The notes beneath the pieces were generated by a model. That model saw only the letters and a program-made list of their open reading frames with translations. It was not told the origin of the DNA and did not search any database. A stretch of 64,000 nucleotides of DNA from Mytilus edulis. Its lineage: Eukaryota. The position numbers and the translations under genes were made by a program. Below are positions 2,349 through 58,340 of the stretch, piece after piece. Location of the stretch: assembly GCF_963676685.1 (NCBI RefSeq), contig NC_092348.1:13268001-13332000 (forward strand), written 5' to 3'. Numbering within the stretch: the first letter of the stretch is position 1; every line of letters starts with the position of its first letter.

Positions 2349-4203
2349 ATAATATATATAATTATAGAAGAAAAGGCTAAAGCCCATGTGGGATTTTTTT
2401 CGTTTTCTAAGGGAAAGCTTAGAGTAATCCTACTGAAATTTGAACTTTACATGTAATTATATATAATTTATTTCTAATACACCTATAAATGGAATAAATG
2501 CTAAATTAAAAGGATCAAAATAAAACAATCGTGAGTAAAACCATTTGTTTCAGTCTAATTGACATATAAGTCAGTATACTTGCTTAGGTTCAAAACCTCT
2601 TTTATTATTTATAGTAAGTTATCCTAAAATGGGAAGCAATTACTCAATGGCCTTAAGCTTACAGAGAACAAAAGATACAAGAAAAATTTGCCTGAGGAAT
2701 GGGGAAATATTGTATGGTTTTGTTTGTCCTATATTTCGGGAGGTCAGTCGGGAAACATATGGCAAGGCCTGACTCATAGATATATGTTTTGTTGTTGGTT
2801 TAATGTAATAAACATTGGATATATTGACGTAGAAACGAAATGTTACATGTATTTTTGTGACACATGTGCCAGATCAATCTTAGAATCAATGTTCGGCTTT
2901 GTTTAAAGTGACCACATATGGCTTCATTACTTCAATCAAAACTCTCATATTAAGTGATTGTTAGGGAGGGCTTGACTAGGGTAATTTTGTAAAAAATAAT
3001 ATTACATATTCATTGATGGCTTTCTTCTTTATGTATGATTGATCCTAATAAATTTGTACCAAAAAAATGTATAGATATATATATATATACAGAGGAAGAC
3101 AAATTCAATTCTGAATTGAATATCATCACTTTACAATGATCATCCAAAATAAATGTTTTGATCTCCTTTCCCTTTTCTCCTACATGTATGCTAACTATAG
3201 GCTATTTCAAAGAAAGACTTATTTCATCAAAAAATCCTATGTTATCTATATTTGGTGTTATTTATATGTAGCTATTTGGATAAACATACATGAATGTCAG
3301 AATTCGTGATGGACACTGGTTTGATGGTCAAAACTTTTCCCCTTTACAAGACATTATGACTCTTTCTTGAACATTTGGAATATGACAGTTGTTTTCAATT
3401 CATTTGATGTGTTTCGGTTTTTGATTTGCTATTTGCTAAGGAACTTTTCATTTTGAATTTTTCGTGCGATTTGATATTTTTGTGTGTAATTATTATTGAC
3501 ACCCCTTTCGTCAGGCCTAAATTAAAATATTGTTTGTTTGCCCTTTTCCGACCCTATGTTTTGAAACAGGGTAGGTAGGTAGGTAAAATATTTTATTTTT
3601 TTCCCCAAAAAAATAACTTGGCTCGGTATATTATTTGTCATGGGTAGGCAGGTAGGTATAATATTTTATTTTATAGATACAAACTCTGCAAAATGTTATT
3701 TGTGTCCGTTTTGTTTTTGCAAATAAGTTTTCTGGGACTATTAGTTTAAAAAAAATATCACGTAGAATGTGAAGCTAATTCATATGCACTACTATTTTGT
3801 TTTCAAATATAAAAAAAATAGAGCTGTGCCGCATATCTTCAACACGTTTATATGCCTGGAACTTTGAAGAGTTTGGAAATCAGTTTGAACTTGCACTTTT
3901 ATTCTGTACTACGTACCTTGTATGCTTACCTTAAGATTTTCTGTAAAAGATAACTTTGTACTGATAAGATATATCCGGGCAGACATACATTACTAGTAGA
4001 AAAAGTCCCTAGAGTGTTAAAAACATCGTGTGTGCCTTTGTTTCCAATAAAAATGCCACAAGACTTTAAAAAACTCTGACAATTGTCACGTATTTTACAT
4101 CGCATTCATAAATGATCTGTATGGACAACTTGGCGATTTTACTGCCAGATATTCTCCACTTTACAGGGTTTTGTCACTTTTGGTTCATGTCAGATATAAA
4201 TAA

Positions 4204-4440
4204 TGTTGTGCCGATATGGTACAAATAAGTAAAGTGTGTATGTAATAAACAGAATACCTTTAATATCTGTAAATATCTGTATATCTGATGAATCAGTAGA
4301 CAGCAATATAATAATACATGTGGTTAATACAGTAAACGGAAGTCGAAGAGAATCCTCGTGACGTCAGTCGTCCAGAGGTATTGCTTGGCATACTGTAAGA
4401 TATGGACTGGTTCTTCTGTGTATACATAAGCGGCACCACA
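4204..4440 (-). repeat. 3' LTR (237 bp)
   Basis: TG...CA termini with an imperfect terminal IR (TGTTGTGCCG / CGGCACCACA). Identical by eye to 14003-14239. Contains CRE TGACGTCA (4359-4366), ETS CGGAAGT (4337-4343) and a minus-strand ATTAAA candidate polyA signal. Confidence 0.97.
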
Positions 4441-4452
4441 TCCGTCCCCTTC
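4441..4452 (-). other. Polypurine tract (PPT)
   Basis: Minus strand reads GAAGGGGACGGA immediately before the TG of the 3' LTR. Confidence 0.9.
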
Positions 4453-4739
4453 ATGTAGAATCAGTCACATATTTAAACTAAAAAATAAACCTAAAAACAA
4501 GATAAAATACAGCCAAGAATTTAACGCTAGTTCATAACTCTCTGATGTTGCGGGTAATAGTTAGAGATGCAAATTAAAACACTCTGTATAAAATATTCAG
4601 TTTCTGTATAAAATATTGAGTTGAAGAAACTCAAAGTCATCCATATATCAAAAGAAACGCATATACATATATCGGAACCGTCCTGGTACTGATAAAACTA
4701 TTTACATAATCCATCAAAAACTCTATTATTGAAAAATTG

Positions 4740-6515
4740 CTAACGAGGCCTAGGGCCCCAGCTAGCTGGCTCTTGTCTTAACTTTGGGATACCGTAGAAT
4801 CGGAGGGCATTATCATTAGCCATCCAGTTTAAAATGTTCAACGGAATGTTTCTGCGCTGACTCACTGCCAAAGCAACATCTATCAAGTTCCAGGGATGGT
4901 TCACCTCACAACATGACCTTGGCGAAAGAAACGGGGCATCGGACTCGAGGATTAACTGATGTGGTAAGATCCTTGAGATCGCATCACTGTTTGTGTTCGT
5001 GTCCTTTAGAAACTTGCCCGTGATTCCAAACACAACATTAGGAAGGCTTTGCCATTCTCTCAATTCCTCAATACTACCATCAAAGCAATGGCGATGATAG
5101 TGCAATTCAGCAAAACCACTGCGAATGATGGCCAATACACGGGCTGCAGCATCACCACTACCTTTATCACGACAGTGCAAGATGACAGGCAACTGTCGAC
5201 GTTGTGCGATCTGCAGCATCTCCAACAAGGCTTTTTCCTGACAGTCCCACATTCGCTGTTGACATTGCTGTGGAGTGTGACATCGCTTGCATCCACACCT
5301 GGATGTGAAGTCAAGGCCTATTTCGCCGACTGCTACGCACTTGTAGTTTCCCAACAGGTGGTCCAAGTCCTCAAGTTGCTTGTGACTTACTCCTTTGGCA
5401 GCAATATGGGGATGTATTCCGAATGATACATACACTGACTTTGCAGCTCCAACTTGTACTGACCAGCTGTCCCAATGTTCTGGGAATACATAGTTGGCAA
5501 TTCCGTAGTAAAAGGTGTTGTTATGCTCAGCCGGAGATATTCGTGAGCTCATATGTAAAAATGTGTTAAAATGTAGTCTCTTGAGGATTAAGTCTAAATG
5601 AAAATGACTGTCTACAAAGACAAATGGCTCTAGAAGTACTGGTACAGTGTCCACAATCCATGCACCCTCGTAAGTAACAAATTTATCACAGGATAACAGA
5701 GACTGTTGTTGAGCAGGTCCTACTCTGCGTAATAGGCTAGTCATAATCTCCCAGTTGGTCAGACTGATGACATGGTTGGGAGGGTTAGCACTGATGTGCG
5801 ACAGGCGGTCAGGACTATAGTTCTGTGCATAGAACACCAGTAGCTGTTGCTCTTGGTCACTGAAACCACTGGTGACGGTTTCATGTAATTGCCGGTCAAG
5901 TACATACTGTAACAAGCCTTCGAGATCTGTTAAGCCAAACCACGATTTAACAAGGTGAAGAGAGCCACTCACCAACTGGCACCACAAATGAAGGTGTTCT
6001 TCATCAAAGAAACAACCAATCCTATGTTCCTCTGTGTGTCTCCTGGCTAGAGAAGATGCCTGGATTTCCTGCTCACAGCAATCCCAACAGGCAGTAGCAC
6101 CCGACCAAAACCATGGAAGGTGTCTCTTGAGGACATGACGGCGTGTCTTTTCCCTTGACACCATCCCACATATTGGACACTGTCGTAATCTGTTTTTCGA
6201 GACTGCTACCGCACCGCTTCTCTCCTCATCGATCTCACTATGGTATATACCAATACTAGTATCTACACCAACACTGCTGTGTGTCTCAACAGGGCCTAAG
6301 GCCCCAGAAGCTACACCAGCAGTCTGGTAATCTGGACCTACTTCTTCAGCTGGACCTACTTCTTCATCTGGACATACGTCTTCATCTGGCCCTACTTCAT
6401 CTATAACCATTAGATCTGCCACGTCAAGATCGGTACAATCGGATTTACTTTCATGCCACTCGCTGTGTGGACTCAGTGACAACACATCTTGGTCTGAACG
6501 AGACCCCTCTTCCAT
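4740..6515 (-). CDS. tatD: ORF3: TatD-family metallo-nuclease with N-terminal acidic repeat and two C2H2-like zinc fingers (~591 aa from first ATG; ORF track extends it to 6536 with a non-ATG start)
   Basis: TatD motifs in order: FVDSHFHLD, GIHPH, AVGEIGLDF, LPVILHCR, HRHCF, ILESDAPFL, ending NALRFYG. The N-terminus has CPIC-x10-H-x4-H and CWDC...RRHTEEH. No stops or frameshifts, no introns. Confidence 0.92.
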   Translation of the reverse strand: MEEGSRSDQDVLSLSPHSEWHESKSDCTDLDVADLMVIDEVGPDEDVCPDEEVGPAEEVGPDYQTAGVASGALGPVETHSSVGVDTSIGIYHSEIDEERSGAVAVSKNRLRQCPICGMVSREKTRRHVLKRHLPWFWSGATACWDCCEQEIQASSLARRHTEEHRIGCFFDEEHLHLWCQLVSGSLHLVKSWFGLTDLEGLLQYVLDRQLHETVTSGFSDQEQQLLVFYAQNYSPDRLSHISANPPNHVISLTNWEIMTSLLRRVGPAQQQSLLSCDKFVTYEGAWIVDTVPVLLEPFVFVDSHFHLDLILKRLHFNTFLHMSSRISPAEHNNTFYYGIANYVFPEHWDSWSVQVGAAKSVYVSFGIHPHIAAKGVSHKQLEDLDHLLGNYKCVAVGEIGLDFTSRCGCKRCHTPQQCQQRMWDCQEKALLEMLQIAQRRQLPVILHCRDKGSGDAAARVLAIIRSGFAELHYHRHCFDGSIEELREWQSLPNVVFGITGKFLKDTNTNSDAISRILPHQLILESDAPFLSPRSCCEVNHPWNLIDVALAVSQRRNIPLNILNWMANDNALRFYGIPKLRQEPASWGPRPR

Positions 6516-6516
6516 C

Positions 6517-6555
6517 CTAGAATGAGAGGAAATCAAAACATAACATGATTAGAAA
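6517..6555 (-). promoter_or_regulatory. Putative splice acceptor for ORF3 subgenomic mRNA
   Basis: Minus strand reads TTTCTAATCATGTTATGTTTTGATTTCCTCTCATTCTAG|GATGGAAG: branch-like CTAAT (6548-6552), pyrimidine tract, AG, then G-ATG. Confidence 0.6.
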
Positions 6556-6652
6556 TACAATAGCGAAAATTATGCACATTTATTACTAAGTACGAACACG
6601 CAAAAATAAATATATACATATATACATATGAAATTATCCCACACAATATCTA

Positions 6653-9600
6653 TTACGTTTGGTATCGTAGTGGGCATCTGATTGGCCTACCATACCTTGA
6701 TGTGTGCTCAGAAGACAGAGAGGCCGAGGGCCTCTTCTCGTCATCTGTGCTGCTGAGTTCGGCATCTACAATGTCCCCATTGAAACCGTTATCTGAACTT
6801 GAAATTTCCCCCAGGTCTAAATTTTGAGGTTCATCAATGCTATTACTAGTAGCATCTAAAGCGGTAACTGTATCACACTGGGGCCCCTGTTCCAGTTCTT
6901 GTGTCAACGCAGTATGGGTATAGGACGGGTCACCTAATGACTGGGGTAAAACAACACTATCAAAAGTGGGCTGATTTGCTTCGAACATGCCCTGAACATT
7001 AAAGTCAACACCATAGGGTATTGTATCATCAAGATCATCCCAGCTCTCATCCATTTCACTTTCAGCTTGGAATAACGCATGCCTTAGTCTTTTGATCCAG
7101 GTCGGGATATCCCTGTCGTTACAAAGTTTCAACTTGTCATGGTGCACTACTGAGTCTCCCTTTCTTCCTCGGATAGTGTACAATGGGGGTCTACTAGACA
7201 CGACAAGAAACGGTCCACACCATGGTGATTTAAGCTTCCTGCTCTGCCCGACTTTTGTAGTTGAGTCTGCCTTGTACACCAAATCGCCTGGTTGATATTT
7301 ATGTTCAACAACTCTTAGGTCATAATCCCGCTTTTGTCTTAGTTGCGAGGTGTGAAGACTGTGCCTTGCAAATTCGTGAATCTTTTGCATCCTACCGACT
7401 AAATGTTTTACCCAAACGTTGGGGGTCATTCTGTTCTGACCGTACTGTGGCATGCCGAGGAGAAGATGAACAGGTTGGATAGTCTCTCTACCCAACATCA
7501 TTTGATTCGGCGTAAATCCAGTTTGCCTATTCACCATTGAGTGCATTGCCATAGATAAGAAAGGCAAGTCTCTGTCCCAGTTACGACAATTTTTCTCAAT
7601 AAAACATCTAATCATGGCCAATACAATGGTATTGTACCTCTCTACCTGGCCATTTGATGAGGGATGATACGGGGTTGTTCTGGTTTTGGCAATTTCCAAG
7701 GCATCACATAGTGTTTTAAATAAGTCACTGTCAAAGTTTCGTCCTTGGTCAGTGTGGATTTCCAAGGGACACCCAAATGTCACCACGAAATGCACAATAA
7801 ATTTCTCAGCAATCAACTTCGCTGTCTGTTCAGGTAATGCAGCCATCTCTACCCATTTTGTGAACTGATCCACCATCATCAAAACATAATTATTGCCGCT
7901 ATTACTTGTATTGAAAGGCCCGAGAATATCGAGATGTACTCTCTCCATCGGATACCCAGCGTGGAACTGCCCAAGTGGTGCTCTAGGTTGCACATGTGCC
8001 TTTTTATTTTGACTACAGGTGGCGCAAGTACTAACATAATCGTCACAATCTTTGCGCATGTTATACCACAGGAAAGCCTGCTTCAACTTATCAAGCGTTT
8101 TTTTCTGACCCAAGTGTCCTGATGTTTTGGTGTCATGACAATTTTTAAGCACTTCTCCTTTTAATTCTGATGGAACAACTAAACAAAGACCTTGGCGTGT
8201 TGGACAACCTATGAATTTGTAGTATAGAACATGGTTAAACATGACAAAGCAAGGTCTACACAACCAAAGCGACCTAGTTGCCCTACTTTGCAAACGTAGT
8301 TCAGCCTGTGTTGGCTCGACGTCTTCCTCCATCCATTTTAATATTGGAGCCAAATCAGGGTCTTCTTGCTGAAATATCTTTAACTGTTCAGGTGGGTATT
8401 CAGGTGCCCAGTTGCTACATGGGTTGCCATCAGTATATGGTAAAGTATCGTCTAAATTTGGTGATGGATCTGAGTGACAATCCCCTGCCAGAGCCGTGGG
8501 CTCTTGGTCAGTGGACATGTCCTTGTCATTTTCAGCGACTACTGAAACAGTGCGTACTGATGCTATCACTGACTTAGTAGCCAATGGAATCACGTCGTCT
8601 ACGTCATTTCCGAATCTGCTCCACTGTTCGTGAGCTCGTAGGCAATATTTACAACCATGACATGGCAGTGTTGTGGGATCAAATCCTGCCCGATAGCAAT
8701 CACATTCAGGAACATCGTCTGGGATGCGACTTAGACCATCAGCGTTACAATGCTTCTTTCCTGGACGATGGATGATCTCCATGTCAAATGATGACAATTC
8801 TTCCAACCATCGCGCTAGTTGTCCTTCAATATGCTTGAAACGCATCAGCCATACCAAACTGTTATGATCAGTGCGTAAAATAAAACGTCTACCAAGTAAG
8901 TAGTGACGGAAATGCCGACAAAACTTTACAACGGCCAGTAACTCTTTCCTTGTTGTACAATAACGACGCTGAGGCTTTAAGAGAACATGGCTTGCAAAGC
9001 ATATAACCCTTTCTTCACCATTTTGTAATTGTGATAAAACTGCACCTATGGTGGTGTCAGATGCATCGGTATCTAATATGAATTTATCATTGGCATTAGG
9101 ATATGTCAAGCAAGGTGCACTTATTAACGCCGTTTTTGACTGTTGGAACGCCTTTTCGTGACACTGTTGCCATTCAACTTCTCCTGTTTGGTGAGCAAGG
9201 TCGTATAGACATGCAGTCATTTCTGCATAGTTGTGCAGGTGATCCCGGTGGTAATTGACAAACCCTAGGTATGACATGAGTTCTTTCTTTGACTTGGGAG
9301 TTGGCCACTTTTTCACTGCTTCTATCTTAGAAGGAGAAACGGAGATGCCATTAGCACTCACCAGTTTTCCTAAAAACTCAACTTCGGGCTGAAACAGTTG
9401 GCATTTCTTCGGTTTCAGCTTCAGGGTATATTGTCTAAATCTTTCAAATGCAGCCCTCAAATTAATGAGACCATCCTCGAAGTTGCGACCGAGAACCACG
9501 ACATCATCAAGATAAACTAACACCTGTGTCCAAGTAAGTCCTCTTAAAACGAGTTGCATGGCCCGCTGAAATGTTGCTGGAGCGTTACAAAGGCCCATTC

Positions 9601-10876
9601 CCATTCTGGTGTGCTCGAACAACCCATATCTTGTAATGAATGCTGTTTTCTTTCGGTCTTCTGGCTCAAGCTCAATCTGATAATAGCCACTGGCAAGGTC
9701 CAATGTACAGAACGTGGTGGTGCCTTGGAGTGAGTCCAAGCAATCCTCAATAATAGGAATAGGGAAGCAATCTTTTATTGTTCTGTCATTTAAAGCTCTG
9801 TAGTCAATGCACCAGCGCACGGTTCCATCTTTCTTTCTTACCAGCACTGGAGCTGAGGCCCATTCAGAAGATGATGGCTCAATGACACCTGCTTGTAACA
9901 TCTTGTCAAGGTGTTGCTGTTCGAGATCTTGGAATCCAAGAGGTGTTCTTCGCATCCGGTGTTTAACTGGAGCGTGGTCTTTTGTATCTATTTTATGCCG
10001 GACAGCTGTAAGGCAACCGAGATCTAGGTCGTGCTGTGCAAATACATCCTGGTATTCGATTAATAACTTCTTGAGTTTTAACTTATCTTCTTGACTAATC
10101 ACATGCTTTATAGAACGTTCATACAGGTCTGTTAAATGGGATGGCAACGTAGACGATTCTTCTTGGTTTAAACCTGGTGCCATGGGCACCTTGGTTTGTG
10201 TTTCTACGATGCCACGACGGACATCTGGAGTTCGATTTTCACTTTCTTCCGAAGTCTCCTCCATTATACTGTCAATCTCTTCTAAATGACCTATCGGTGT
10301 ACCCTTTTTAATACGTATGTAACGATTCCCATCAATTAAAATAGCTACAGGGCAAGATTTGCCTTTTCCGACAACATGCGAAACTAAAACTCCACTGGCA
10401 AGAGAGCATGGCTCCAAAATAAACTCTTGTTCAGATCCTCTGTGTGTATCAATGCTAAGGATCATTTTTGAATTTGGCGGGACTGTGATTGTACGCTTAA
10501 TGCAGACTTGTTGAGAAGCACTATCATCAGATCCAGTAACGAATGATGCGGGTATAACTCTGTTGTTAACTGTAATTGATGGAGTGCTGAGGTTTATGAC
10601 TGCACCAAGCGTATCCAGGATATCTAGACCTAGAATGACATCATCTGTAAGTGGTGCCCTGCACACGTCCCATCTTATTTCTAACCCATCTATATTCAGG
10701 AGTGTGTTCCTAATGATCTTGCCAATGACCAGTTGCTCGCCCAAACCACGTAGCGTCACTGTTTCGGAACATTCTATATTCTCCGGTATTAATTTCTCGT
10801 TGACGAGTGTAATCATAGCTGCTGTATCAACAATCATACTTGCATTTTGTTGAAACACTGTTCCCCTAACTGCCAA
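6653..10876 (-). CDS. pol: Pol polyprotein (protease, reverse transcriptase, RNase H, integrase with GPF motif); frame is open up to 11020 and is entered by -1 frameshift
   Basis: PR: IVDTAAMITL and ILGLDIL. RT: WASAPVLVRKKDG..CIDYRALN and YLDD. RH: FILDTDAS, TRKELLAVV, TDHNSL, NADGLSR. IN: H-x6-H...CATC, HLDILGP, HTDQG, GQVERYN, WCGPF. No chromodomain seen; acidic C-terminal tail. Confidence 0.97.
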   Translation of the reverse strand: MAVRGTVFQQNASMIVDTAAMITLVNEKLIPENIECSETVTLRGLGEQLVIGKIIRNTLLNIDGLEIRWDVCRAPLTDDVILGLDILDTLGAVINLSTPSITVNNRVIPASFVTGSDDSASQQVCIKRTITVPPNSKMILSIDTHRGSEQEFILEPCSLASGVLVSHVVGKGKSCPVAILIDGNRYIRIKKGTPIGHLEEIDSIMEETSEESENRTPDVRRGIVETQTKVPMAPGLNQEESSTLPSHLTDLYERSIKHVISQEDKLKLKKLLIEYQDVFAQHDLDLGCLTAVRHKIDTKDHAPVKHRMRRTPLGFQDLEQQHLDKMLQAGVIEPSSSEWASAPVLVRKKDGTVRWCIDYRALNDRTIKDCFPIPIIEDCLDSLQGTTTFCTLDLASGYYQIELEPEDRKKTAFITRYGLFEHTRMGMGLCNAPATFQRAMQLVLRGLTWTQVLVYLDDVVVLGRNFEDGLINLRAAFERFRQYTLKLKPKKCQLFQPEVEFLGKLVSANGISVSPSKIEAVKKWPTPKSKKELMSYLGFVNYHRDHLHNYAEMTACLYDLAHQTGEVEWQQCHEKAFQQSKTALISAPCLTYPNANDKFILDTDASDTTIGAVLSQLQNGEERVICFASHVLLKPQRRYCTTRKELLAVVKFCRHFRHYLLGRRFILRTDHNSLVWLMRFKHIEGQLARWLEELSSFDMEIIHRPGKKHCNADGLSRIPDDVPECDCYRAGFDPTTLPCHGCKYCLRAHEQWSRFGNDVDDVIPLATKSVIASVRTVSVVAENDKDMSTDQEPTALAGDCHSDPSPNLDDTLPYTDGNPCSNWAPEYPPEQLKIFQQEDPDLAPILKWMEEDVEPTQAELRLQSRATRSLWLCRPCFVMFNHVLYYKFIGCPTRQGLCLVVPSELKGEVLKNCHDTKTSGHLGQKKTLDKLKQAFLWYNMRKDCDDYVSTCATCSQNKKAHVQPRAPLGQFHAGYPMERVHLDILGPFNTSNSGNNYVLMMVDQFTKWVEMAALPEQTAKLIAEKFIVHFVVTFGCPLEIHTDQGRNFDSDLFKTLCDALEIAKTRTTPYHPSSNGQVERYNTIVLAMIRCFIEKNCRNWDRDLPFLSMAMHSMVNRQTGFTPNQMMLGRETIQPVHLLLGMPQYGQNRMTPNVWVKHLVGRMQKIHEFARHSLHTSQLRQKRDYDLRVVEHKYQPGDLVYKADSTTKVGQSRKLKSPWCGPFLVVSSRPPLYTIRGRKGDSVVHHDKLKLCNDRDIPTWIKRLRHALFQAESEMDESWDDLDDTIPYGVDFNVQGMFEANQPTFDSVVLPQSLGDPSYTHTALTQELEQGPQCDTVTALDATSNSIDEPQNLDLGEISSSDNGFNGDIVDAELSSTDDEKRPSASLSSEHTSRYGRPIRCPLRYQT

Positions 10877-10959
10877 ACTTTTCCCAATCGTACGTCTTAT
10901 AACAATATCAGACGAAGCCGTGGGCCTCGGTTCTGATTTGTCGGGTGGTATTTTCCCTT

Positions 10960-11017
10960 GGCCATGTGATTTAAGAGTCGAGTGTTGGCCTACCGGCTCG
11001 ACCCGTTGGCATTTAAC
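10960..11017 (-). promoter_or_regulatory. Predicted -1 programmed ribosomal frameshift signal (G_UUA_AAU + H-type pseudoknot)
   Basis: Pol is in the -1 frame and overlaps the gag end. Heptamer GTTAAAT (11017-11011), 6-nt spacer, stem GGGUCGAG/CUCGACUC, loop GGCCA complementary to downstream UGGCC (10964-10960). Confidence 0.75.
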
Positions 11018-13314
11018 GACTCAGTTGTTGGATTAGAGCTAGGATAAGCTCTGTCGCCAGGTGAAGGAGACCGTTGTTTAAAGTAGCCCGGATTTCTAGA
11101 ATTTGGACGTGGTGATGGTGAACGTTGACGTTGAGGACTAAATGACCTCTGTTGAGGACTATATGACCTTTGTTGAGGACTATATGAACTTTGATTAGGA
11201 GGTGGTGTAGGTGATCGATACGCATTGTACTTAGGTGGTGTATATCTTTCAGGAGACCTACCACGTGTATGTTGATCAGAAGAAAGCATCACCTCTGTCA
11301 ATTTGGTCACAAGTTGAGTCAAGTTCCTTACTTCCTTTTCCAATGGACTATTAACAGTACTAGCACTTTCTTTGTCCTGTGATTGACCAGCGCTATCAGC
11401 AAATGAGACCTGTCTGTGAGCAAAATTTGGACTTCTAGATCCATAAATAGCCTTCTGATTTGCTATGGACGTTTTCATGATTTTCAACGCTTTATTGATG
11501 GACTCTGGGTTTCTTTCTATCACGTGACGGGCAGCCTCCTTGTCCTTGCAACCTCTGAGGAATGCCTCTGTGCCAATTTGATCAATGACAGAATTGTCAC
11601 ATTTATCATACCCATCCATTGCAATAAAATGGACCCGTTCAGCAAACTCCTCCAGTGTTTCACTGTCTTGCTGCCTCACATACTGCAACTGACGTCTTGC
11701 TGATACAGGTTCGTCCTTTTTGCTGAAACGCTGTTTCAGTGCTTTCCTTAAAGCCTTATAGTCATCATCGATGTTGACCTTTCTTGCATATTCTAAAGCC
11801 ACATCAGCTAGACAGTCCAATAGTCGGCAAACTTTCTTCCTATTTTCCCATTGTCTCCTTCCTGCTGTTCTTTCAAACTGATAGATAAAGGCTTCCCACG
11901 TAAGAAAACCTCTTCCTGTGAAAACTTGCATTTTAGGAAGCTGGGGACTTCTACTCCTGTCTCTCGCCCCAGAGTTTTCCTGCCATCTAGAGTACTCCCT
12001 ATCAAGAGAGGAGTCTGACGAAGAGCTGTGACTTCTTTCCTTTTGCTTTTTAGTGCGTGATCTTGATGACCTGCTAGTGTCAATTTGCATTGGTGACGGG
12101 CCTGTCGATGCGACTGTTGTCATCACAGGGGTCATAAATGCAGGCGGAGGTTGTTGTATCATTGATCCTATATGAGGGTACAGAGCTGGTCTACTCTGTA
12201 CTAAGGATGCTGCATATGATTCGCTACTTGTAGCTGGTGCAACGTGTAAAGGTGTACTAACATTGATACCCTGAGATACATATGGCGTACCAACATAGGA
12301 CGGTGCAAAAGTAGCCGTTGCTGGAGTTGTGTAATGTTGGGGTTTATATTCAGTGGATGCTCCTTCTATGCCTTTGAATGGATGTTGTGTTACCATACCT
12401 GAGGTTGTCCCGTGCAGAGCCGAGGGCCCTGGCACGCTTCCCTTGTCACTCAGTAGTGGCAACGAACCTTGCATATGATAAATCTCCTGCTCACTACCAA
12501 ATATTTCTGGCATACCTTTGCCCTGAGACTGTTGAAACAACACTGTGTTGTGCAGAGCCGAGGGCCCTAACACATTACCTTTGGCACTCGATACTGGAGT
12601 TGTACCTGCCTTAGATTCAGGCTGTGTAGTGTGATCAAATGACATAATTGGTGAGAGACCAAATGCTGGAGGCTTATTTTGCAGTAATGGAGTACTGGCA
12701 ATATACGGAATAGCTTCAGATTTCTGTTTAACAGGAGTATCCATAGAAGGGAGTTTGACTTCCTTATTTCTCTTGTCAATCAAAGTGCTAACACTTGATG
12801 CCATCTGCTGAAATGAACCTGGGTGTTCAAATGCGCTCTTAAATTGAACAGTACTTGCCTCATCATTAGCAGCAGCCATCTTGTCTAGCCGTCTTCCCAA
12901 GGCATTAAACTTATCCGATGTTAACTCTTCTAAACGTTTACCGTTAGCATCAATCTTCTCGTCAATTCTCTGTTCTGACCGTTGCACTTGTTGGGATATT
13001 GCCACTATGTTTTCTGAACTGATTTTTGTTGCTTCTTTTTGTTCGGCTTGAATATTTAACAAACCGTGAAAAATCTGTTCAATGCGATCCTCACTTTGTT
13101 TCACTCTGTTTTCAGTCTCAACAGCTCTTATTGCATTTGCTTTTCTATCCGCCTGAAACTCTTGGTATAGCTGTTCCAATGACATTTTGGTATTTTCAGC
13201 TTGTTCTGTTAAAGTATTATCAGCTATATGTTCTTTTGTGAATATGTCATCATGTATCAACTCCTCTGTTTCAATGTTTTCCTTCAGTTCATTATCATCC
13301 CCAATTCCTGACAT
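10990..13314 (-). CDS. gag: Gag-like protein (774 aa)
   Basis: First ORF after the PBS and 5' UTR. Coiled-coil N-terminus, P/S/T-rich linker, capsid-like region (WEAFIYQFERTA..W; RQQDSETLEEFAERV) and an RS/SP-rich C-terminus without a CCHC knuckle. Confidence 0.9.
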   Translation of the reverse strand: MSGIGDDNELKENIETEELIHDDIFTKEHIADNTLTEQAENTKMSLEQLYQEFQADRKANAIRAVETENRVKQSEDRIEQIFHGLLNIQAEQKEATKISSENIVAISQQVQRSEQRIDEKIDANGKRLEELTSDKFNALGRRLDKMAAANDEASTVQFKSAFEHPGSFQQMASSVSTLIDKRNKEVKLPSMDTPVKQKSEAIPYIASTPLLQNKPPAFGLSPIMSFDHTTQPESKAGTTPVSSAKGNVLGPSALHNTVLFQQSQGKGMPEIFGSEQEIYHMQGSLPLLSDKGSVPGPSALHGTTSGMVTQHPFKGIEGASTEYKPQHYTTPATATFAPSYVGTPYVSQGINVSTPLHVAPATSSESYAASLVQSRPALYPHIGSMIQQPPPAFMTPVMTTVASTGPSPMQIDTSRSSRSRTKKQKERSHSSSSDSSLDREYSRWQENSGARDRSRSPQLPKMQVFTGRGFLTWEAFIYQFERTAGRRQWENRKKVCRLLDCLADVALEYARKVNIDDDYKALRKALKQRFSKKDEPVSARRQLQYVRQQDSETLEEFAERVHFIAMDGYDKCDNSVIDQIGTEAFLRGCKDKEAARHVIERNPESINKALKIMKTSIANQKAIYGSRSPNFAHRQVSFADSAGQSQDKESASTVNSPLEKEVRNLTQLVTKLTEVMLSSDQHTRGRSPERYTPPKYNAYRSPTPPPNQSSYSPQQRSYSPQQRSFSPQRQRSPSPRPNSRNPGYFKQRSPSPGDRAYPSSNPTTESLNANGSSR

Positions 13315-13984
13315 GTTGTCTTTATTTCAAATTACAATATTCTTAAATATTTCAAATTACAATATTATGCAACTCAAAACAATATGACAATATGCACTGA
13401 GTAATTACTCAAGGCAAATAAATCTCAAAATCACAACTTTTATGTGTGACTCAAGACATAAACAATGCAGCTTTTTTATAAAAGCTACTACTTTTACAAT
13501 TTCAAAAATGCAGGCAACAAAATAGGGCAGAACTGGAACAGAGACTCAGCTGACACACTGTACTTTATTATACGGTGTATAATATGTTGCTCATAAATAT
13601 TTATGAGTGTATATACCTTCTTTAATATAAAATATCAGTCCAAGTTCAGTATAAAATATTATACGAAACCAATCTACTGAAATGAAGACTGTTTCCGGTT
13701 TGCGTCTGCGCAATGGAGTTTTGCAGACAAATGACTTCCGTGAAGAAGGACCTAATGGCGATAACCGGAAGTTCCTAACCTTATCTGATGAAAAATATCA
13801 AATATAAAGATATCATACGTGCTAAACTGTAAAAATTTGATGCAATTAATCTACAATCAATCTGATGTAAATTTAGGGTAAGGCGCACGTAATGAATTTA
13901 CAAAAAAAATGAAGTATGGAAAGTTTTCAAATCTGCAAAGGCGCCCTCGTGGAGTCCGCCTCACTTGCTAAAAATTATTCGTTC

Positions 13985-14001
13985 TTTGTCGTACGACGCC
14001 A
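13985..14001 (-). other. Primer-binding site (PBS)
   Basis: Minus strand reads TGGCGTCGTACGACAAA starting 1 nt after the 5' LTR CA end. TGG is complementary to the tRNA CCA end. The cognate tRNA was not identified. Confidence 0.85.
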
Positions 14002-14002
14002 A

Positions 14003-14239
14003 TGTTGTGCCGATATGGTACAAATAAGTAAAGTGTGTATGTAATAAACAGAATACCTTTAATATCTGTAAATATCTGTATATCTGATGAATCAGTAGAC
14101 AGCAATATAATAATACATGTGGTTAATACAGTAAACGGAAGTCGAAGAGAATCCTCGTGACGTCAGTCGTCCAGAGGTATTGCTTGGCATACTGTAAGAT
14201 ATGGACTGGTTCTTCTGTGTATACATAAGCGGCACCACA
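14003..14239 (-). repeat. 5' LTR (237 bp)
   Basis: Identical to 4204-4440, followed on the minus strand by the PBS. Confidence 0.97.
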
Positions 14240-17200
14240 ATAATATAGCGGCATCGTTAACATAATCATCCTGATCTGCGGATCACAAAAGGCCATCCCT
14301 ATATAGAATACAACGTCCGTTACAAATTAGTTTGTACACACGTTGATAATTTTGTATCAAACGAACTTTTTTGAAAATGAACCCTGCTCTTTAAGTATAA
14401 AGGTACAGAGAAGCGTTCACATGCTGAACATCGATTTCAAACAAATGCTTTGAAACTTCAAATGCAAGTGTTCATGTCAAACGCTCAGGTGATACCAAAC
14501 GGACTGGACCTTATACGTTGAAGATAAAACCCGAGAATTCCAGATAAAATAGTTTTGAGCGGGAAATACAAATATAAGATTTTTGGTAGGAACGAAAAAA
14601 TAAAATAAAATAAAATCTTGCTGGTAAATACAAATAAAAGATTTTCAGGCGCAACGAATTTATAGGGTCGGTCGGTAAAGGGCAAACAATCAATATTTTA
14701 ATTTAAGCCTCATTGCCGTTTTCGCAGTATTATAAAAAACATTGCAAAAATGTCCTCACTTTACTACTATTATCAGTCTTCTGCTGTGAGGAAAGTAAGA
14801 GTGATAATTATATCTCTCCTGCTTTAAGGTCACAATTTAGTGATAGACACCTCAGAGAATTAACAGTTTGTCCAGTAGGTAACACACATTTTTACATTTT
14901 AATTCTGCACTGAACTTCGGTACTCAAGTATTCAATACCTTAATTAAAAGGAAATACAGAGTGTTGTTCAAATAGTCTTTTGAACACTTTACAACTGGAC
15001 TGTTTTTTCCAAAAGGGCTGTGGTTTTGTCTCGCCCTTATCTGATTGAGAAAATTTGAGGGACTAATTGTTAAGAGAGAGTTATATCTCTTGCATATAAA
15101 AACACCCAAGGTTGTTGATTTTGAAAAGAGCAGGCTAATGCCACTACAAGGCAGCACTTGCACCAGCAAAGTTAAAAAGGGATTGATATAAGTTGTAATG
15201 ACTTGTTTGACAATCACAGGGGTTTCATTATCTTTCATGTTGACTGGTACTTTCCACGTTTCTAGGTGGTACTTTTCAATTTATTCCATGAATATCTTAT
15301 ATAAAAATTCCTACATTTAGGCAGTACTTGTCAATAGCATAGGAGGGTAAAAGTACCGGGTACCGCCTCCTAATGAATGGCCTGCAATCAACCATTAATG
15401 AATATGTTTCAATTACATCTAATGTTTTGACAGCAATGTGATCTGATTTGTAGTGAATGCTATACAAGATCTTGTTTCCACCACTAATATATAAAAATTG
15501 GTGTTTAACTACCAATCAATGACTGCTATTATCAAGCTTTCATGTCACAAATATACTGTGAATTCATTTATAAGTTGTTGGGTACTAAATATTGATGAAT
15601 TTGAAGATAAAAATAGACCATGTATACTAGTATACATCTTTAGGCTTGATGCAAAAATTATAGAAAAAATACAATATCAACAAGCATACAGTGTTTTCCT
15701 CAATCCAAGAACCTTAATTGCTACATATGAAAAGAAATGAATCTATTTGAAAATTTTAGGAGCTTTATTTATTGTTCTGTTAAATTCAGCAACATTTTGA
15801 ATTCACATTTATCACCAATAATAAGGAAGTAAAATCCATGTATTTATCTTATCTATGATTATTTTAAGACCAATTTCCTTTTGATTGATTTTTGCATCTG
15901 TTCGGCTGAAGTGGACCATATAAATAATTTCACAAATGTCACGTTACACCACTGTTCAAACACGGAGGCAGGTGATTTTGTTAATTTCACAAAAAACTAA
16001 ATTAATTATGCCGAAGGAAATTGGTTCGAGCAGGTGCTTGTTGATATCATAGCCTTAATATATCGTGTCTCTAGAGTTACTGCCAGACTTGTAAGCATCA
16101 GTAATACCTATAATAGTACAAAAACGTATTCTAAGTTGGTTTACTTGAAATTGTAAAAAAAAATATTGATTTATTTATAGATAAAATGTTAATTGAAAAT
16201 ACAAAAAAATAATATAAGAGGAAAAATGACTGTTTCATGTTAGTTGTTCCTGCTTGTTAGTTGTGAAAAAGGTATTGCTATTCCCAATAGGAGATCTCCT
16301 TTTAACCCTGAAACTACTCAACTTTTACCATAAAGTTTCATGGAAAATCCTTTTCAGGAAGAAAAAGGTTCTCATGCTATAATAAATTTGAAACAATTCA
16401 AAAGAAAAGTAAAATCATGATAAAATCAGGTAGAACGGGCTTGATATAATATCAAATCGATATGAAGCACAAAAACCACTAAGCAACCATAATCCCAACG
16501 TAGATGACAAAAAAGAAGCAACACAACTTTTCACACAAGTTCAAATGAAGAAAAATAAGCAATTAAAGGTCACTAAACAACCTTCAACAATGAGAAAACA
16601 TATATTGTATAGACAGCTTTTAAAGGCCTCAACATAAAAAAAAAAATGTGAAACAATCTAATTTAAAGAAGAAACTAAACTCTTATTTTTAACAATACAA
16701 TTTACAAAAAAAATGTCAGACAAGCTCCTCCTCACTTGAGGCAGTCACATCAAGAATATGGCAGACATGTTTGTGAGTGCTCAACCCTCCCCTTACCTTG
16801 GACATTGGTATAACAAAACAATATTAGAACAAACTGGAGATGGCTTGAAACAATAAGGTACAGAAACAAGATGTATTTTAACAAAGCACAAATATTAGAG
16901 TACTTGTAATTACTGACAGCTAGTTCAAAACAAATTTCAACTAACAAATAAATCATGTTCTCCCAGACTAATTTTTTTGTTATTCACTAAGGAAGAGGTT
17001 AAACTAAATAAAACAAAATTGGCTTTTTTTAGGGGGGGGGGGGGACCTACAGCAAAAGCTGGTAGCTGCATATATTTAAAATTAACATGAAATTCAGAAT
17101 TATTAAGGCTAACATATTGTGATTAGCAAATCCATATTGTAAATAATTGATTGCTGTAGATGATGATAATTAATTATTTTGGCTTTTCCTACTTCAAATA

Positions 17201-18004: not shown

Positions 18005-18660
18005 TAAACACCAAGACATGATGTCATGACTACCAAATTCTTTTAAAAGGTCCTTGAATACCAAGACATGATGGTTACAATTACAAACGTCTTTTAAGAA
18101 CATTAGGGCAAAGGCATGCTGTCATGGTTACCTATTTTTTTTCACAATATAAAATATAAAGACATGATGTCATGGCTACCAAATTCTAATCTTTAAAGGA
18201 CATAAAATACTAAGACATGATGTCACGGTTACCAAGTTTTTTTAAGGACATAAAATACCAAATTGAGATGTCATGGTTACCAAGTTCTTTTCAGGACATG
18301 ATATACCAAAACTTGATGTCATGGTTACCAAGTTCTTTTAAGGACAGAAAATACCAAAGCATGATGTCCTGATCACCAAGACATAATGACATGCTCACCA
18401 AATTCTTTTTTAAGACAAAAAACACCAAGGAATGATTTCATGATCTCCATATTATACTATTTTTTTTTTACAAAAAGACAAAGAAGACCAAATCATGATT
18501 TCATGTTCACCAAATTATATTTCAAAAGGACATAAAAACACTAAGACATTATCCCATGGTCTCCAAAATAAGTTAAGGACATAAAACACCTAGCCATGAT
18601 GTCAAGGTCAACAAGGTCATTAAAAGACATAAAACACAAAGTCATGATGTCATGCTCACC
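18005..18660. repeat. Degenerate ~47-bp minisatellite (left part)
   Basis: Repeated AAACACCAAGACATGATGTCATGGTTACCAAGTTCTTTTAAAGGACAT-like units. Confidence 0.85.
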
Positions 18661-18664
18661 AATA

Positions 18665-19965
18665 GATATAAAAAGCGGTAGAATGAGTGCCAATGAGACA
18701 ACTCTCCATCCAAGTCACAATTTGTAAAAGTAAACCATTATAGGTCAAAGTGTAAAGCAAAATATTGTCCTATGAAATATTGTACCACAAGACAATATTT
18801 CATAACTATGTATCATGAAATATTGTCCTTGTCTATGGAAAAATGTCCAGAGAAGGACAAATTTGCATAGTGAAATTGTGTCTGTATATAGACAATATTT
18901 CACAGATGAATACTATGGAACTTTGTCTTGTTAAAGGGAGGTTATATTTTGTGTGAATTAAGACAATATTTCATAGATAAATACTACAAAATTGTGTCCT
19001 GTTAAAAGGAGGTACACGTTATATTTTGGTTATATTTCGTGAGTATTGAGACAATATTTCATAGACAGATTGTCATGGAATTTTGTCTCATGAAGGGGAG
19101 GTTATCAACATATATTCATGTATATAGAATTTTTTTTCTGCGACATGTGCCTGTGTATATATTTACAAAATAAGCTATTGTCAGTACATTGCTTATATTT
19201 GTACAGAATAATGTAACCTATTAGACAATTCTTTAATCTATAATAAAACATTTGTAATGTTTCTATACAAATTTGAAACTCACTATTAGTAATAATATAA
19301 ATTCTCTACTATACAAAACAATTTCAGTTATAAATCTAAAAATGTTAATGCTGCATGCTTGTGTACTATTTGTAATTGGGAAATAGTTTGATAAAAAATA
19401 TTTTCAAAGCCAGTATTTCATGTAGTGAAGTATTGTCATGAACAGAATTTCATAGTAAAATATTGTCTAGAAGGAGGTGACAAATTTTAATGGACAAGGA
19501 CACTATTTCATAATGAAATATTGTCCAAGACAATATGTCATTATGAAATACTGTCAGTGGACAATATTTTATATGAAAATTTGTCCGACAGACAATATTT
19601 CATGGAGGACAATATTTTATGTTACAAAAGCACAGTCTTCAACACGGAGCCTTGGCTCACATCTAACAGCAAGCTATAAAGGGCCCAAAAATTACTAGTG
19701 TATAACCATTCAAAAGGAAAACCAACGGTAGAATATATATATAAAACAAGGAAACTCTTATGAACCACATCAACAAACAACAACTACTAAACATCAGATT
19801 CCTCAGATTCCAACCAAATGCAGGGGGTTTAAACATTTTAATAGGTACCAACCTTCACCCTTATCTGAAACAATAGTGTAACATCACAACATGGAAAGAC
19901 ACTGTAAAATATGAATTGAAATGGCTTAACTCAATCGAAAGACATATTAACACAAGTGAACATGC
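18665..19965. mobile_element. Dispersed SINE-like repeat interrupted by a MITE
   Basis: GCCAATGAGACAACTCTCC...TATAGGTC|...CTTCAACA...GCTATAAAGGGCCC. Related segments occur at about 16565-16630 (same strand) and about 61210-61330 (opposite strand). Confidence 0.55.
18751..19626. mobile_element. Ginger-like non-autonomous TIR element (876 bp)
   Basis: TGT...ACA termini, ~35-bp imperfect TIRs (TGTAAAGCAAAATATTGTCCT / AGGACAATATTTTATGTTACA), 4-bp TSD AAAG (18747-18750 and 19627-19630) and many subterminal GACAATATTTCAT / ATGAAATATTGTC motifs. Confidence 0.7.
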
Positions 19966-19969
19966 AAGT

Positions 19970-20210
19970 GCATCAAGTTCATCAAAGGACATAAAACACC
20001 AAGACATGATGTCATGGTTACCAAGTTTTTTAAAGGTCATTAAAAACCAAGACATAATGTCATGGTCACCAAGTTCATTAAAGGTCATAAAACACCAAAT
20101 AATGATGTTGAGGTTACGTTATTCATTAAACGGCAAGAGATGATGTTTTGATCACATTAAAGACTCAGAAACTCCAAGATATGATGTCATTTTTCACCAA
20201 TTTCATGAAA
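19970..20210. repeat. Degenerate ~47-bp minisatellite (right part, continuation of 18005-18660)
   Basis: Same CCAAGACATGATGTCATGGTTACCAAG unit. Confidence 0.8.
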
Positions 20211-28394: not shown

Positions 28395-29392
28395 GTATGA
28401 TATCTTCCCCCATACCCCCTCTGTTGTGTTACTCACTCCTAAGTTGTCTTATCCCCTCCCCCTTGTAACTAAGTATGTACTGTCTTGCCCCATACCCCCC
28501 CCCCCCCCCTGTGTCACTTACTCCTTAGTTGTCTTATCCCCTCCCTCTTGTAACTAAGTATGTACTGTCTCCTCCCTAATCCCCCGCTATGTCACTCACT
28601 CCTAAGTTGTCTAATCCCTTCCCCCTTGTAACTTCAGTATATACTGTCTCCCCCTAATCCCCCTCTATGTCACTCACTCCTAAGTTTTCTAATCCCCTCC
28701 CCCTTGTAACTTCAATATGTACTATATTGTCCCTATCCCCTCTATGCAACTCACTCCCAAGTTGGCTTATCCCCTCCCCCCCTGTAACTTCAGTATGTAC
28801 AGTCTCCTCCCATACCACCCACTCCTAAGTTGTCTAATCTCCTTACCCTTGTAACTCAGTATGTAATATCTTCTCCCATACCCCCTCTGTGTCACTCACT
28901 CCTTAGTTGTCTAATCCCCTCCCCCTTGTAATTTCAGTATGTATTGTCTCTCCCCATACCCCCTCTATGTCACTCACTCCTAAGTTGTCTAATCCCCTCC
29001 CCCTTGTAACTACAGTATATACTGTCTCCCCCTATCACCATCTATGTCACTTCTTAGTTGTCTAATCCCCTCCCCCTTGTAATTTCAGTATGTATTGTCT
29101 CTCCCCATACCCCCTCTATGTCACTCACTCCTAAGTTGTCTAATCCCCCCCTTGTAACTTTAGTATATAGTATCTACCCCCCTTTCCCCCCTCTGTCACT
29201 CACTCCTAAGTTGTCTAATCCCCTCCCCCTTGTAACTTTAGTATGTAGTATCTACCCCCTATCCCCCTATGTCACTCACTCCTAAGTGGTCTAATCCCCT
29301 CCCCCTTGTAACTTTAGTATGTAGTATCTACCCCCCTATTCACCCTATGTCACTCACTCCTAAGTTGTCTAATCCCCTCCCCCTTGTAACTT
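28395..29392. repeat. C-rich ~72-bp minisatellite, about 13-14 copies
   Basis: Unit CCCCTCTATGTCACTCACTCCTAAGTTGTCTAATCCCCTCCCCCTTGTAACTTCAGTATGTACTGTCTCCCC-like. Confidence 0.92.
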
Positions 29393-30186
29393 CTCTATAT
29401 ATCATTGATTACTTATTGACATTATTTTTAAGACCAGGTGTAACATGTGTTTGATATGAACAGCTGTTTTTCTCTGTGATACTTCACAGACTGAAGCCAG
29501 TACTGCAGGAATATCTATCTCTGTATCTATGTTGGCGCCATCAGTTTTCTTAACCATCTGCTACTGCTATCATCGCCACATGAGGGTGATTGGAACCATC
29601 TAATTGATATGATAACACTACATAGAAAATGTGTGTGTTTGTAAGTGGTGATTGTTCAGACCTTAAAATACCTGTAGTCGACATCTATCAATGCTATTTG
29701 TACTCCGTTAGTTTTTCTGCAATTGTTTAACCAGATGCCTTCCGTGCTGATGAAAAAAGTAGCGCTAATTGACTTACGTTTAACATAAAGGTAGATTGTT
29801 AAAGACACCATACCTGAGTATTATATAAATCTCTGTTTACCTGTTGAGAAAAGCTAATTGGGAAAAGAATTTAGTAATCTTTATTCCAGATAGATGCAAT
29901 AAGCTGACATTCTTAAGTTTATATTTGTCATTGAAACTGAATGTTTGATGTTTGTGTGAAGTCATAAAAACTTTTTCCTCAATAACCCAACAACTTCACT
30001 TTTTAGCATTGATGATTGAATAAACTTTGATCAGATGCTAGTTTTTGTGAAGAACAAATGTGGTAGAAAATCATAACAATGTTTGAAGGACTTGAAACCT
30101 TAAAACGATGATGGTTTCTGTACGGAAAATAGACAAATTGAATTATGAAGTGACTGTAGGTTATGTGTAAGACATTTTAACTAGAT

Positions 30187-31873: not shown

Positions 31874-32161
31874 TTTTTTATGCCCCACCTACGATAGTAG
31901 AGGGGCATAATGTTTTCTGGTCTGTGCGTCCGTCCGTCCGTTCGTCCGTCTGTCCCGCTTCAGGTTAAAGTTTTTGGTCGAGGTAGTTTTTGATGAAGTT
32001 GAAGTCCAATCGACTTCAAACTTGGTACACATGTTCCCTATGATATGATCTTTCTAATTTAAATGCCAAATTAGAGATTTTACCCCAATTTCACTGTCCA
32101 CTGAACTTAGAAAATGATAGTGCGAGTGGGGCATTCGTGTACTGAGGACACATTCTTGTTT
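31874..32161 (+). mobile_element. Short Helentron-type MITE (HINE), copy 1
   Basis: TTTTTATGCCCCAC...GGGGCATA, (GTCC)n microsatellite, core, GTGGGGCAT subTIR, GTGT..ACAC hairpin, TTCTTGTT end. Near-identical copy at 37224. Confidence 0.8.
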
Positions 32162-37223: not shown

Positions 37224-37529
37224 TTTTTATGCCCCACCTACGATAGTAGAGGGGCATTAATTTTTCTGGTCAGTGCCTCCGTTCGTCTGTGCGTCTGTTC
37301 GTCCGTCTGTGCGTCCGTCCGTTCGCTTCAGGTTAAAGTTTTTGGTCAAGGTAGTTTTTGAAGAAGTTGAACTCTAATCAACTTGAAACTTAGTACACAT
37401 GTTCCCTATGATATGATCTTTCTAATTTTAATTCCAAATTAAAGTTTTGACCCTAATTTCAGGGTCCACTGAACATAGAAAATTATAGTGCGATTGGGAC
37501 ATCCGTGTACTTGGGACACATTCTTGTTT
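37224..37529 (+). mobile_element. Short Helentron-type MITE (HINE), copy 2
   Basis: Same structure and sequence as 31874-32161. Confidence 0.8.
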
Positions 37530-45924: not shown

Positions 45925-46675
45925 GAAATCTTGTATGTGCTAATTGTCTCACTTTTCAGGAACTTGTATGTTCTTTCAGTGTGTCCCACAATCCCTGAAC
46001 TTGTATGTACCAAGTGTTCCATGATCCCTCAGAATTTGTATATTCTGTGTTTTCCACAATCCCTGAATTTCTAAGTTCTGTGTGTCCACAATCCCTAAAC
46101 TTAAATGTTCTGTGTGTCCCACGATTCCTGAACTTGTATGTTCAGTGTGTCCCACAATCCCTGAACCTGTATGTGCTTAGTGTCCCATGATCCCTGAACT
46201 TGTATGCTCTGTGTGTCCCATGATCCATGAACCTGTATGTGCTTGGTGTCCCATAATCCCTGTACTTGTATGTTCTATGTGTCCCACAATCCCTGAACCT
46301 GTATGTGCTTACTGTCCCATGACCCCTGAACTTGTATGTTCTGTGTGTCCTATGGTCGCTGAACTTGTATGTTCTGTGTTTCCCACTTTCCCTGAACCTT
46401 TTTGTTCTGTGTGTTCCATGATCCCTGAACTTGTATGTTCTGCGGTGTGTCCCACGATTCCTGAAATTGTATGTTCTGTGTTTCCCATGATGATGATGAT
46501 CCCTGAATTTGTATATACTGAATGTGCTCCATAATCCCTGAGCTTGAATGTTCCAAGTTTATCACGAACCATGAACATGTATGTGCAGAGTGTCCCGCCA
46601 TCTCTGAACTTATATGTACTGTGTGTCCCCCAATCTCAGAATTGTGAATTTATCAAGTGTCCCTGTACTTGTATA
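45925..46675. repeat. 33-bp minisatellite, about 22 copies
   Basis: Unit TCCCTGAACTTGTATGTTCTGTGTGTCCCA(CAA/TGA). Confidence 0.92.
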
Positions 46676-56204: not shown

Positions 56205-56665
56205 AGGTGGGAGTTAAGTAGTAAGGATTCTGAAAGAAAAAGGGGGAGGGGTGTAGTAGGAAATGGAGGGACACCGGTGGTGGTAAGTATTAAGGATTCT
56301 GAGAGAAGGGGGATGTAGTAGAAATGGACCGAAGCATGTGGGATTAAGTAGTAATGATCCTGAGGGAGGGGGGATGTAGTAGGAAATGGACCCAAGTATG
56401 TGGGATTAAGTAGTAATGATCCTGAGGGAGGGGGGATGTAGTAGGAAATGGAGGGATGCATTGTTTTACACAGGTAGGAGTAAATAGTAAGGATTCTGAG
56501 GCAGGGGGTTGTAGTAGGAAATGGAGAAAGACGGATGGGAGTAAGTAGTAAGGATTCTGAGAGAGGGGGCTGTAGTTAAAAATGGAGGGACACCGTCACC
56601 GGTGGGAGTAAGAAGTAAGGATTATGAGGGAAGGAGGGGATTGTTGTAGGAAATGGAGGGACACA
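56205..56665. repeat. G-rich ~60-bp minisatellite, about 7 copies
   Basis: Unit GTGGGAGTAAGTAGTAAGGATTCTGAGGGAGGGGGATGTAGTAGGAAATGGAGGGACAC-like. Confidence 0.9.
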
Positions 56666-58033: not shown

Positions 58034-58340
58034 GCACATATTTCTATAGTGCAAAAAAATGTAATTCACATATATTTCTATAGTGCAAAAAAATGTAATT
58101 CACATATATTTCTATAGTGCAAAAAAATGTAATTCACATATATTTCTATAGAACAAATAAAATGTAATTCACATATATTTCTATAGTACAAAAAAATGTA
58201 ATTCACATATATTTCTATAGTACAAACAAAATATAATTCACATATATTTCTATAGTACAAAAAAATGTAATTCACATATATTTATATAGTACAAAAAAAA
58301 TATAATTCACATATTTTTCTATAGTACAAAAAATGTAATT
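58034..58340. repeat. ~34-bp AT-rich minisatellite, about 9 copies
   Basis: Unit AATTCACATATATTTCTATAGT(G/A)CAAAAAAATGT. Confidence 0.93.

Follow-up and report, generated by a model that had tools for sequence, protein, structure and literature searches.

The 64,000-nt stretch of Mytilus edulis DNA analysed here (the window) contains, on its minus strand, an LTR retrotransposon whose third open reading frame (ORF3) encodes a zinc-domain/TatD nuclease and starts one base after a sequence resembling a U2-type splice acceptor. That this acceptor is used by some route we regard as quite likely. With more reserve, we favour the specific reading that ORF3 is made from a spliced, LTR-initiated RNA and translated from its own ATG. 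A spliced ORF3 mRNA of this kind had been proposed in the initial annotation, and on the basis of sequence and gene models it stands as the best reading. Under this mechanism, transcription would begin in the 5' LTR and the bulk of the RNA would stay unspliced, providing the genome and the mRNA for gag and gag-pol, while a fraction would be spliced from a leader donor (13779, 13616 or 13964) to the TAG ending at 6517. Such a splice would take out gag, pol and five upstream ATGs, leaving an mRNA of ~2.4-2.7 kb from which ORF3 would be translated at its own ATG as a free zinc-domain/TatD nuclease.

The element occupies 14239-4204 of the minus strand (10,036 nt), with gag, pol and ORF3 all intact. 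Its main parts are the following.

14003..14239, minus strand: 5' LTR, 237 nt, TG...CA, same sequence as the 3' LTR
14063, minus strand: ATTAAA poly(A) signal in the 5' LTR
13984..14001, minus strand: primer-binding site, beginning with TGG one base past the LTR
10990..13314, minus strand: gag, 774 aa; Retrotrans_gag, weak PNMA match
6653..11020, minus strand: pol, in the -1 frame relative to gag; protease, RT, RNase H, integrase
4740..6515, minus strand: ORF3, 591 aa
4204..4440, minus strand: 3' LTR, with a polypurine tract just before it

Since the two 237-nt LTRs are identical and the element is flanked by a 4-bp target duplication (TTAT), it was inserted recently. The LTRs with TG...CA ends, the primer-binding site, the polypurine tract and the target duplication are those of Ty3/Gypsy elements, and the Pfam domain order after gag, protease-RT-RNase H-integrase (the protease being recognized by its DTAA motif), is of the Gypsy type. 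Transcription presumably starts in the 5' LTR near 14085, and pol ends at a TAA stop codon (6655-6653, minus strand). Apart from gag, pol and ORF3, no frame of at least 150 codons is found in the 64-kb window; a tRNA scan and an Rfam search of 4000-14500 both gave 0 matches. At the gag-pol junction (11020-10950, minus strand), where pol overlaps gag by ~30 nt in the -1 frame, GTTAAAT, slippery-like but non-canonical, precedes a hairpin across the gag stop (-14.7 kcal/mol, 61 nt), and together they probably constitute a -1 frameshift signal. The protease motif usually takes the form DTGA. Here it is DTAA (pol residues 4-7, 10828-10817), as it is in the M. coruscus model P0191, and DTAA is therefore a family trait.

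ORF3 consists of an acidic disordered N-terminus (residues 1-95), a Cys/His zinc-binding helical domain (~105-294) and an HxH-class TatD nuclease domain (301-575) that contains a Cys-rich insert. The TatD domain is recognized both by Pfam (PF01026, E 7e-41) and by fold (E 7e-15), and it has the barrel, the HxH motif and the conserved Glu, His, His and Asp of Group II TatDs; the corresponding residues H304, H306, E398, H447, H476 and D526 are present in 90% or more of 80 sequences. The zinc-binding helical domain (6203-5634, residues 105-294) is modelled with a mean pLDDT of 94, and its Cys/His ligands are conserved across the family. Compared with 48,161 chains, this model found no match (best Z 2.6), which does not by itself show the fold to be new, and against viral structures there was none at E<=0.001; an Atlas comparison likewise gave no match (best value 0.83). 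The initial annotation had regarded ORF3 as a regulated accessory gene and not a passenger: the conservation of catalytic and zinc-ligand residues in the 80 sequences bears out that it is maintained, while regulation is at most a proposal. Human and E. coli members of Group II TatD (TATDN2, TATDN3 and E. coli YcfH and YjjV) are described as 3'-5' exonucleases and AP endonucleases (PMC10085689). Like them, ORF3 keeps the TatD fold, HxH and the metal-binding Glu, His, His and Asp; unlike them, it adds the zinc-binding helical domain and the Cys-rich insert and resides in a retrotransposon. ORF3 probably acts on the element's own cDNA or RNA:DNA intermediates, in 3'-5' trimming or clearing, or in repair at integration.

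The same annotation called the ORF3 message env-like. The label suits the position after pol and the route of expression, but not the product, which by Pfam and fold is a TatD. Considered as an Env, ORF3 has no signal peptide, hydrophobic N-terminus, membrane segment or furin site (R-x-K/R-R), and its peak 19-residue hydropathy, 1.33, is located in a TatD strand. By its ORF3, the element is thus not an errantivirus.

The family to which ORF3 belongs has well over a hundred divergent relatives. The nearest named proteins come from Mytilus edulis (99%, 335 aa), M. coruscus (92%) and M. trossulus (71%), and most of the best 150 relatives (representatives after 50% clustering) cover both the zinc and TatD domains. 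A 39-row tree, which does not identify the donor lineage, places ORF3 among element-type proteins, separate from bacterial TatD. Among distant members, only those with pol pieces (P0026, P0028, P0036 and P0097) are shown to reside in retrotransposons. When stray host contigs were sought in prokaryotic genomes, all 80 loci among the matches listed were prokaryotic TatD. One element-type TatD, P0033, is labelled as a Sedimenticola MAG on a 2.6-kb contig and is probably host DNA in a bacterial bin. In three distant relatives (P0035, P0090 and P0144), a NADAR domain is fused to the zinc-domain/TatD protein.

The acceptor signal lies at the end of the short spacer between pol and ORF3.

6516..6652, minus strand: pol-ORF3 spacer, 137 nt, 73.7% A+T, 49% T, five out-of-frame ATGs
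6548..6552, minus strand: branch-point-like CTAAT, its branch A at -33 from the exon
6517..6539, minus strand: pyrimidine tract and TAG acceptor, 16/20 pyrimidines; the intron would end at 6517

On the minus strand, TAG (6519-6517) is followed by a single G (6516) and then by the ORF3 ATG (6515-6513). The spacer, CTAAT, pyrimidine tract, TAG, G and ATG are all found as first described. The usual definition of a U2-type acceptor includes a branch motif located 18-45 nt ahead of the exon. Here such a motif within this distance is combined with a YAG and its pyrimidine tract and with an AG-free zone of 69 nt ahead of the acceptor, there being no other AG between 6587 and 6518.

This acceptor-like sequence exceeds what is expected by chance. 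The score used is a plain pyrimidine count combined with general motif definitions, and it involves no training on mussel introns. At least 16 pyrimidines in 20 precede 4 of the 720 AGs on the sense strand of the element, and the TAG before ORF3 is the sole YAG among the four. When the spacer was dinucleotide-shuffled 20,000 times, a comparable site at most 10 nt from the ATG arose in 0.27% of the shuffles, or 0.095% if a branch motif was included; the 16/20 cut-off is the value observed at the ORF3 acceptor itself, and with a laxer cut-off of 14/20 the shuffle rate rises to 3.9%. Mononucleotide shuffles of the spacer gave a comparable site near the ATG in 1.0% (0.4% with the branch motif). 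In host DNA, comparable sites end 2 of 724 tiles of 137 nt and precede 8 of 2,117 ATGs. On the antisense strand of the element, 8 of 506 AGs are comparable acceptor-like sites.

The spacer ATGs, at 6627, 6619, 6579, 6546 and 6541, precede the TAG, and none of them is in frame with ORF3. Because of these five ATGs, scanning or reinitiation from pol to ORF3 would be hard, and splicing to the TAG at 6517 would remove all of them. The context of the ORF3 ATG is good (A at -3, G at +4) for every leader donor candidate. The N-terminus that follows is conserved. Among 193 related proteins, 24 could be aligned to the first 12 ORF3 residues. Of these, 16 open with a Met just ahead of a DVLSL-type motif (42-99% identity), another 2 are attached to pol sequence, and the last 6 are weak, low-complexity cases; the own-Met count of 16/24 is inflated, since ORF callers take the first in-frame Met by design. 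Judged from these alignments, the N-terminus at its own ATG is the real start of ORF3. No gag sequence was found in any of the 193 proteins, which argues against a Cer1-like product shared with gag. Within the disordered acidic tail of the N-terminus (6515-6390), two short motifs are conserved, DVLSL and hydrophobic-DE-V, and they look like short protein-binding motifs, which may resemble SUMO-binding motifs.

Gene models from other copies bear on the same position. P0001 (M. coruscus, UniProt A0A6J8E709; ORF3 92% identical) reads HTSR-MEEG, as does P0037, a member of a more distant M. coruscus subfamily, and an AG one base before the ATG is therefore needed in those copies. In both, the junction joins a donor at the end of pol, not a leader donor, to the ORF3 acceptor. 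A third protein, P0193 (M. edulis), begins at the spacer ATG 6546, reads through the tract and carries Q at the position of the TAG in the window; the simplest codon to account for this would be CAG, hence still YAG. All three are predicted gene models, and what they suggest about the acceptor is to be read in that light. The model of a near-identical M. edulis copy, P0038, bypasses the ORF3 acceptor. In more distant relatives, an AGN codon precedes the start Met in one of three, a null result (P ~0.3).

Potential donors were ranked by pairing energy with the 5' end of U1 over 420 upstream GT sites. Four of them are relevant here.

13774..13782, minus strand: donor candidate AAG/GTTAGG, GT at 13779, rank 22/420, best in the 5' UTR
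13611..13619, minus strand: donor candidate AAG/GTATAT, GT at 13616, rank 23/420, second in the 5' UTR
13959..13967, minus strand: donor candidate CAA/GTGAGG, GT at 13964, rank 45/420, just after the primer-binding site
6690..6698, minus strand: donor-like AAG/GTATGG, GT at 6695, in the last pol codons, rank 10/420, phase 2

The sites at 13779 and 13616, which the initial annotation had put forward, exist and are the top two of the 5' UTR, but they reach only ranks 22 and 23. That list was moreover incomplete, as the pol-end donor at 6695 outranks both and is in frame with ORF3. The candidate at 13964 was also absent from it. An 11-codon uORF (ATG 13816) stops one base ahead of donor 13779, and first exons from 13779 and 13616 would both contain it, while donor 13964 would leave a first exon without any ATG. 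The middling strength of the leader donors would fit an element that needs to retain unspliced RNA.

Of the other ways in which ORF3 could be expressed, an internal promoter is unlikely, though less so than the rest. It would lie either in the spacer or inside pol, and in the latter case a pol donor, for example 6695, might nevertheless be joined to the ORF3 acceptor. The relevant feature in the spacer is a weak candidate.

6585..6616, minus strand: TATATAT (6616) 29 nt before an initiator-like TTAGT (6587)

This is the sole TATAWAW plus initiator-like pair of the 10-kb element, and internal promoters have a precedent in the env genes of Oikopleura Tor3b/4b, where the promoter is described in pol or in the post-pol spacer and the RNA is unspliced (PMC4402516). 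However, the TATA plus initiator pattern was defined post hoc and recurs in 8.6% of dinucleotide shuffles and in 11 of 724 host tiles, a start at 6587 would leave three out-of-frame ATGs ahead of ORF3, and a spacer promoter leaves the acceptor-like site unexplained. A bacterial promoter scan, of a type unsuited to a mussel host, found 0 promoters. Less probable again is that the acceptor simply has no use, having arisen by chance in a T-rich spacer, and that ORF3 is either hardly expressed or translated from full-length RNA through reinitiation or internal ribosome entry; we consider this the most doubtful of the readings. The non-coding parts of the sense strand are indeed T-rich in all regions (37-49% T), and a near-equal acceptor-like TAG (15/20 pyrimidines) stands at 4491 in the 3' UTR, where it is the polypurine tract, and not an ORF, that follows. 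Furthermore, the uORFs from 6579 and 6546 both terminate at the TAG of the acceptor, one base short of the ORF3 ATG, a spacing that fits stop-restart. Yet spacer shuffles that keep composition place a site near the ATG in just 0.3-1%, three other copies (P0001, P0037 and P0193) use or retain the acceptor position, and for reinitiation ribosomes would have to pass at least 95 nt and several ATGs beyond the pol stop, in a frame entered solely by frameshifting.

The remaining alternative, which we hold improbable, accepts the acceptor but makes the pol-end donor (GT 6695) its main partner. Splicing out the resulting 179-nt intron would remove the pol stop along with the 13 codons before it, with ORF3 in frame through the junction, so that ORF3 would be fused behind integrase and packaged with Gag-Pol. 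This donor is the nearest strong one and ranks above all leader donors; P0001 and P0037 carry the exact junction, and in the distant relative P0036 pol sequence also continues into ORF3. Against this, the in-frame phase is a 1-in-3 coincidence, and the string AAG/GTATGG is spelt by R-Y-G codons, of which it may be a by-product. Were genomic RNA spliced efficiently, intron-less copies could also arise, whereas the window copy, P0191 and P0193 retain the pol end or the spacer. Pol sequence is present in only 7 of the 193 ORF3 relatives and a full Pol-ORF3 fusion in 0; no ORF3-containing protein of 1036-2955 aa occurs among 8,000 long candidates (weak evidence), and none of the 6 matches obtained from 36 candidates in a search of short proteins spans the pol-ORF3 junction. 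P0036 was rejected as a natural fusion: it is without the zinc-finger segment present in P0140, ends early and looks like a decayed copy or a model. We therefore rate the pol-end route as minor, or as the predictor's choice. A speculative extension, to which we give little credence, is that in a widespread mollusc Gypsy lineage one acceptor and two donors form a switch between a free nuclease and an integrase-fused one. If so, the pol-end donor would replace the basic integrase tail with the whole zinc-domain/TatD protein, and a nuclease for end-trimming or repair, encoded by the retrotransposon itself, would enter both the particle and the integration complex.

The preferred reading, splicing of an LTR-initiated RNA to the ORF3 acceptor, follows a route known from other elements. 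In Drosophila errantiviruses, env junctions of gypsy, ZAM, idefix and springer have been mapped as spliced (10.1101/2023.08.03.551782). Like the mussel element, these are Ty3/Gypsy elements with a third ORF after pol, which in their case is reached by splicing from the 5' end. There, however, the first exon is described as contributing either a peptide or a portion of the start codon, and an envelope protein is made, whereas mussel ORF3 has its own ATG one base past the acceptor and encodes a soluble nuclease. The LTR elements Juno and Vesta of bdelloid rotifers provide another parallel, namely, an enzymatic non-env ORF3 at the env position, either a DEDDy exonuclease or a GDSL esterase, so that a 3'-5' exonuclease is included; expression of ORF3s from spliced messages is stated in that account as a general rule (PMC5408684). 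They differ from the mussel ORF3 in having a DEDDy fold in place of a TatD barrel. In C. elegans Cer1, also a Gypsy element, the non-env accessory protein CERV is reported to be made from a spliced mRNA (PMC10309623). CERV is described as having five exons, some common to gag, and a role in RNA export, which contrasts with the gag-free relatives of mussel ORF3. Finally, Oikopleura Tor elements document both candidate routes, the env RNA of Tor3a being spliced, but their cargo is a membrane glycoprotein (PMC4402516).

An acceptor ahead of a third ORF is expected in such elements, so that the site alone is ordinary; the nuclease cargo is unusual. The probable expression route is of a known type, an env-like subgenomic splice, and the main interest is the TatD cargo together with a possible Pol-TatD isoform. 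Literature searches did not find TatD cargo in retrotransposons, although it may be recorded in supplements or Repbase reports, and the term TatD has 0 occurrences in the main texts of the rotifer study (PMC5408684), a mollusc LTR survey (PMC6238403) and an errantivirus survey (PMC13524379). Many mussel database entries named 'tatD' appear to be this retrotransposon gene and not host genes. The value of the acceptor is that it offers exact and cheap tests, in the form of junctions ending at 6516, of how the TatD cargo is expressed. Provided that ORF3 is expressed, and especially if this happens as a fusion to integrase, it would represent a second family of LTR-element accessory nucleases after the rotifer DEDDy enzymes, raising the question of why retroelements bear 3'-5' nucleases.

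In the flanking DNA, 41-nt inverted repeats (93%) at 3513-3553 and 14670-14710 lie 650 and 430 nt from the retrotransposon, which may have inserted into a MITE-like element of ~1.2 kb. Two copies (86-89%) of a dispersed repeat with a CCGT-type microsatellite are found at 31875-32161 and 37224-37529. The host DNA also contains tandem arrays at 1525-1779 (unit of ~35 nt), 18006-20209 (~48), 28415-29431 (~78), 45927-46686 (~33), 56260-56654 (~61) and 58019-58333 (~34).
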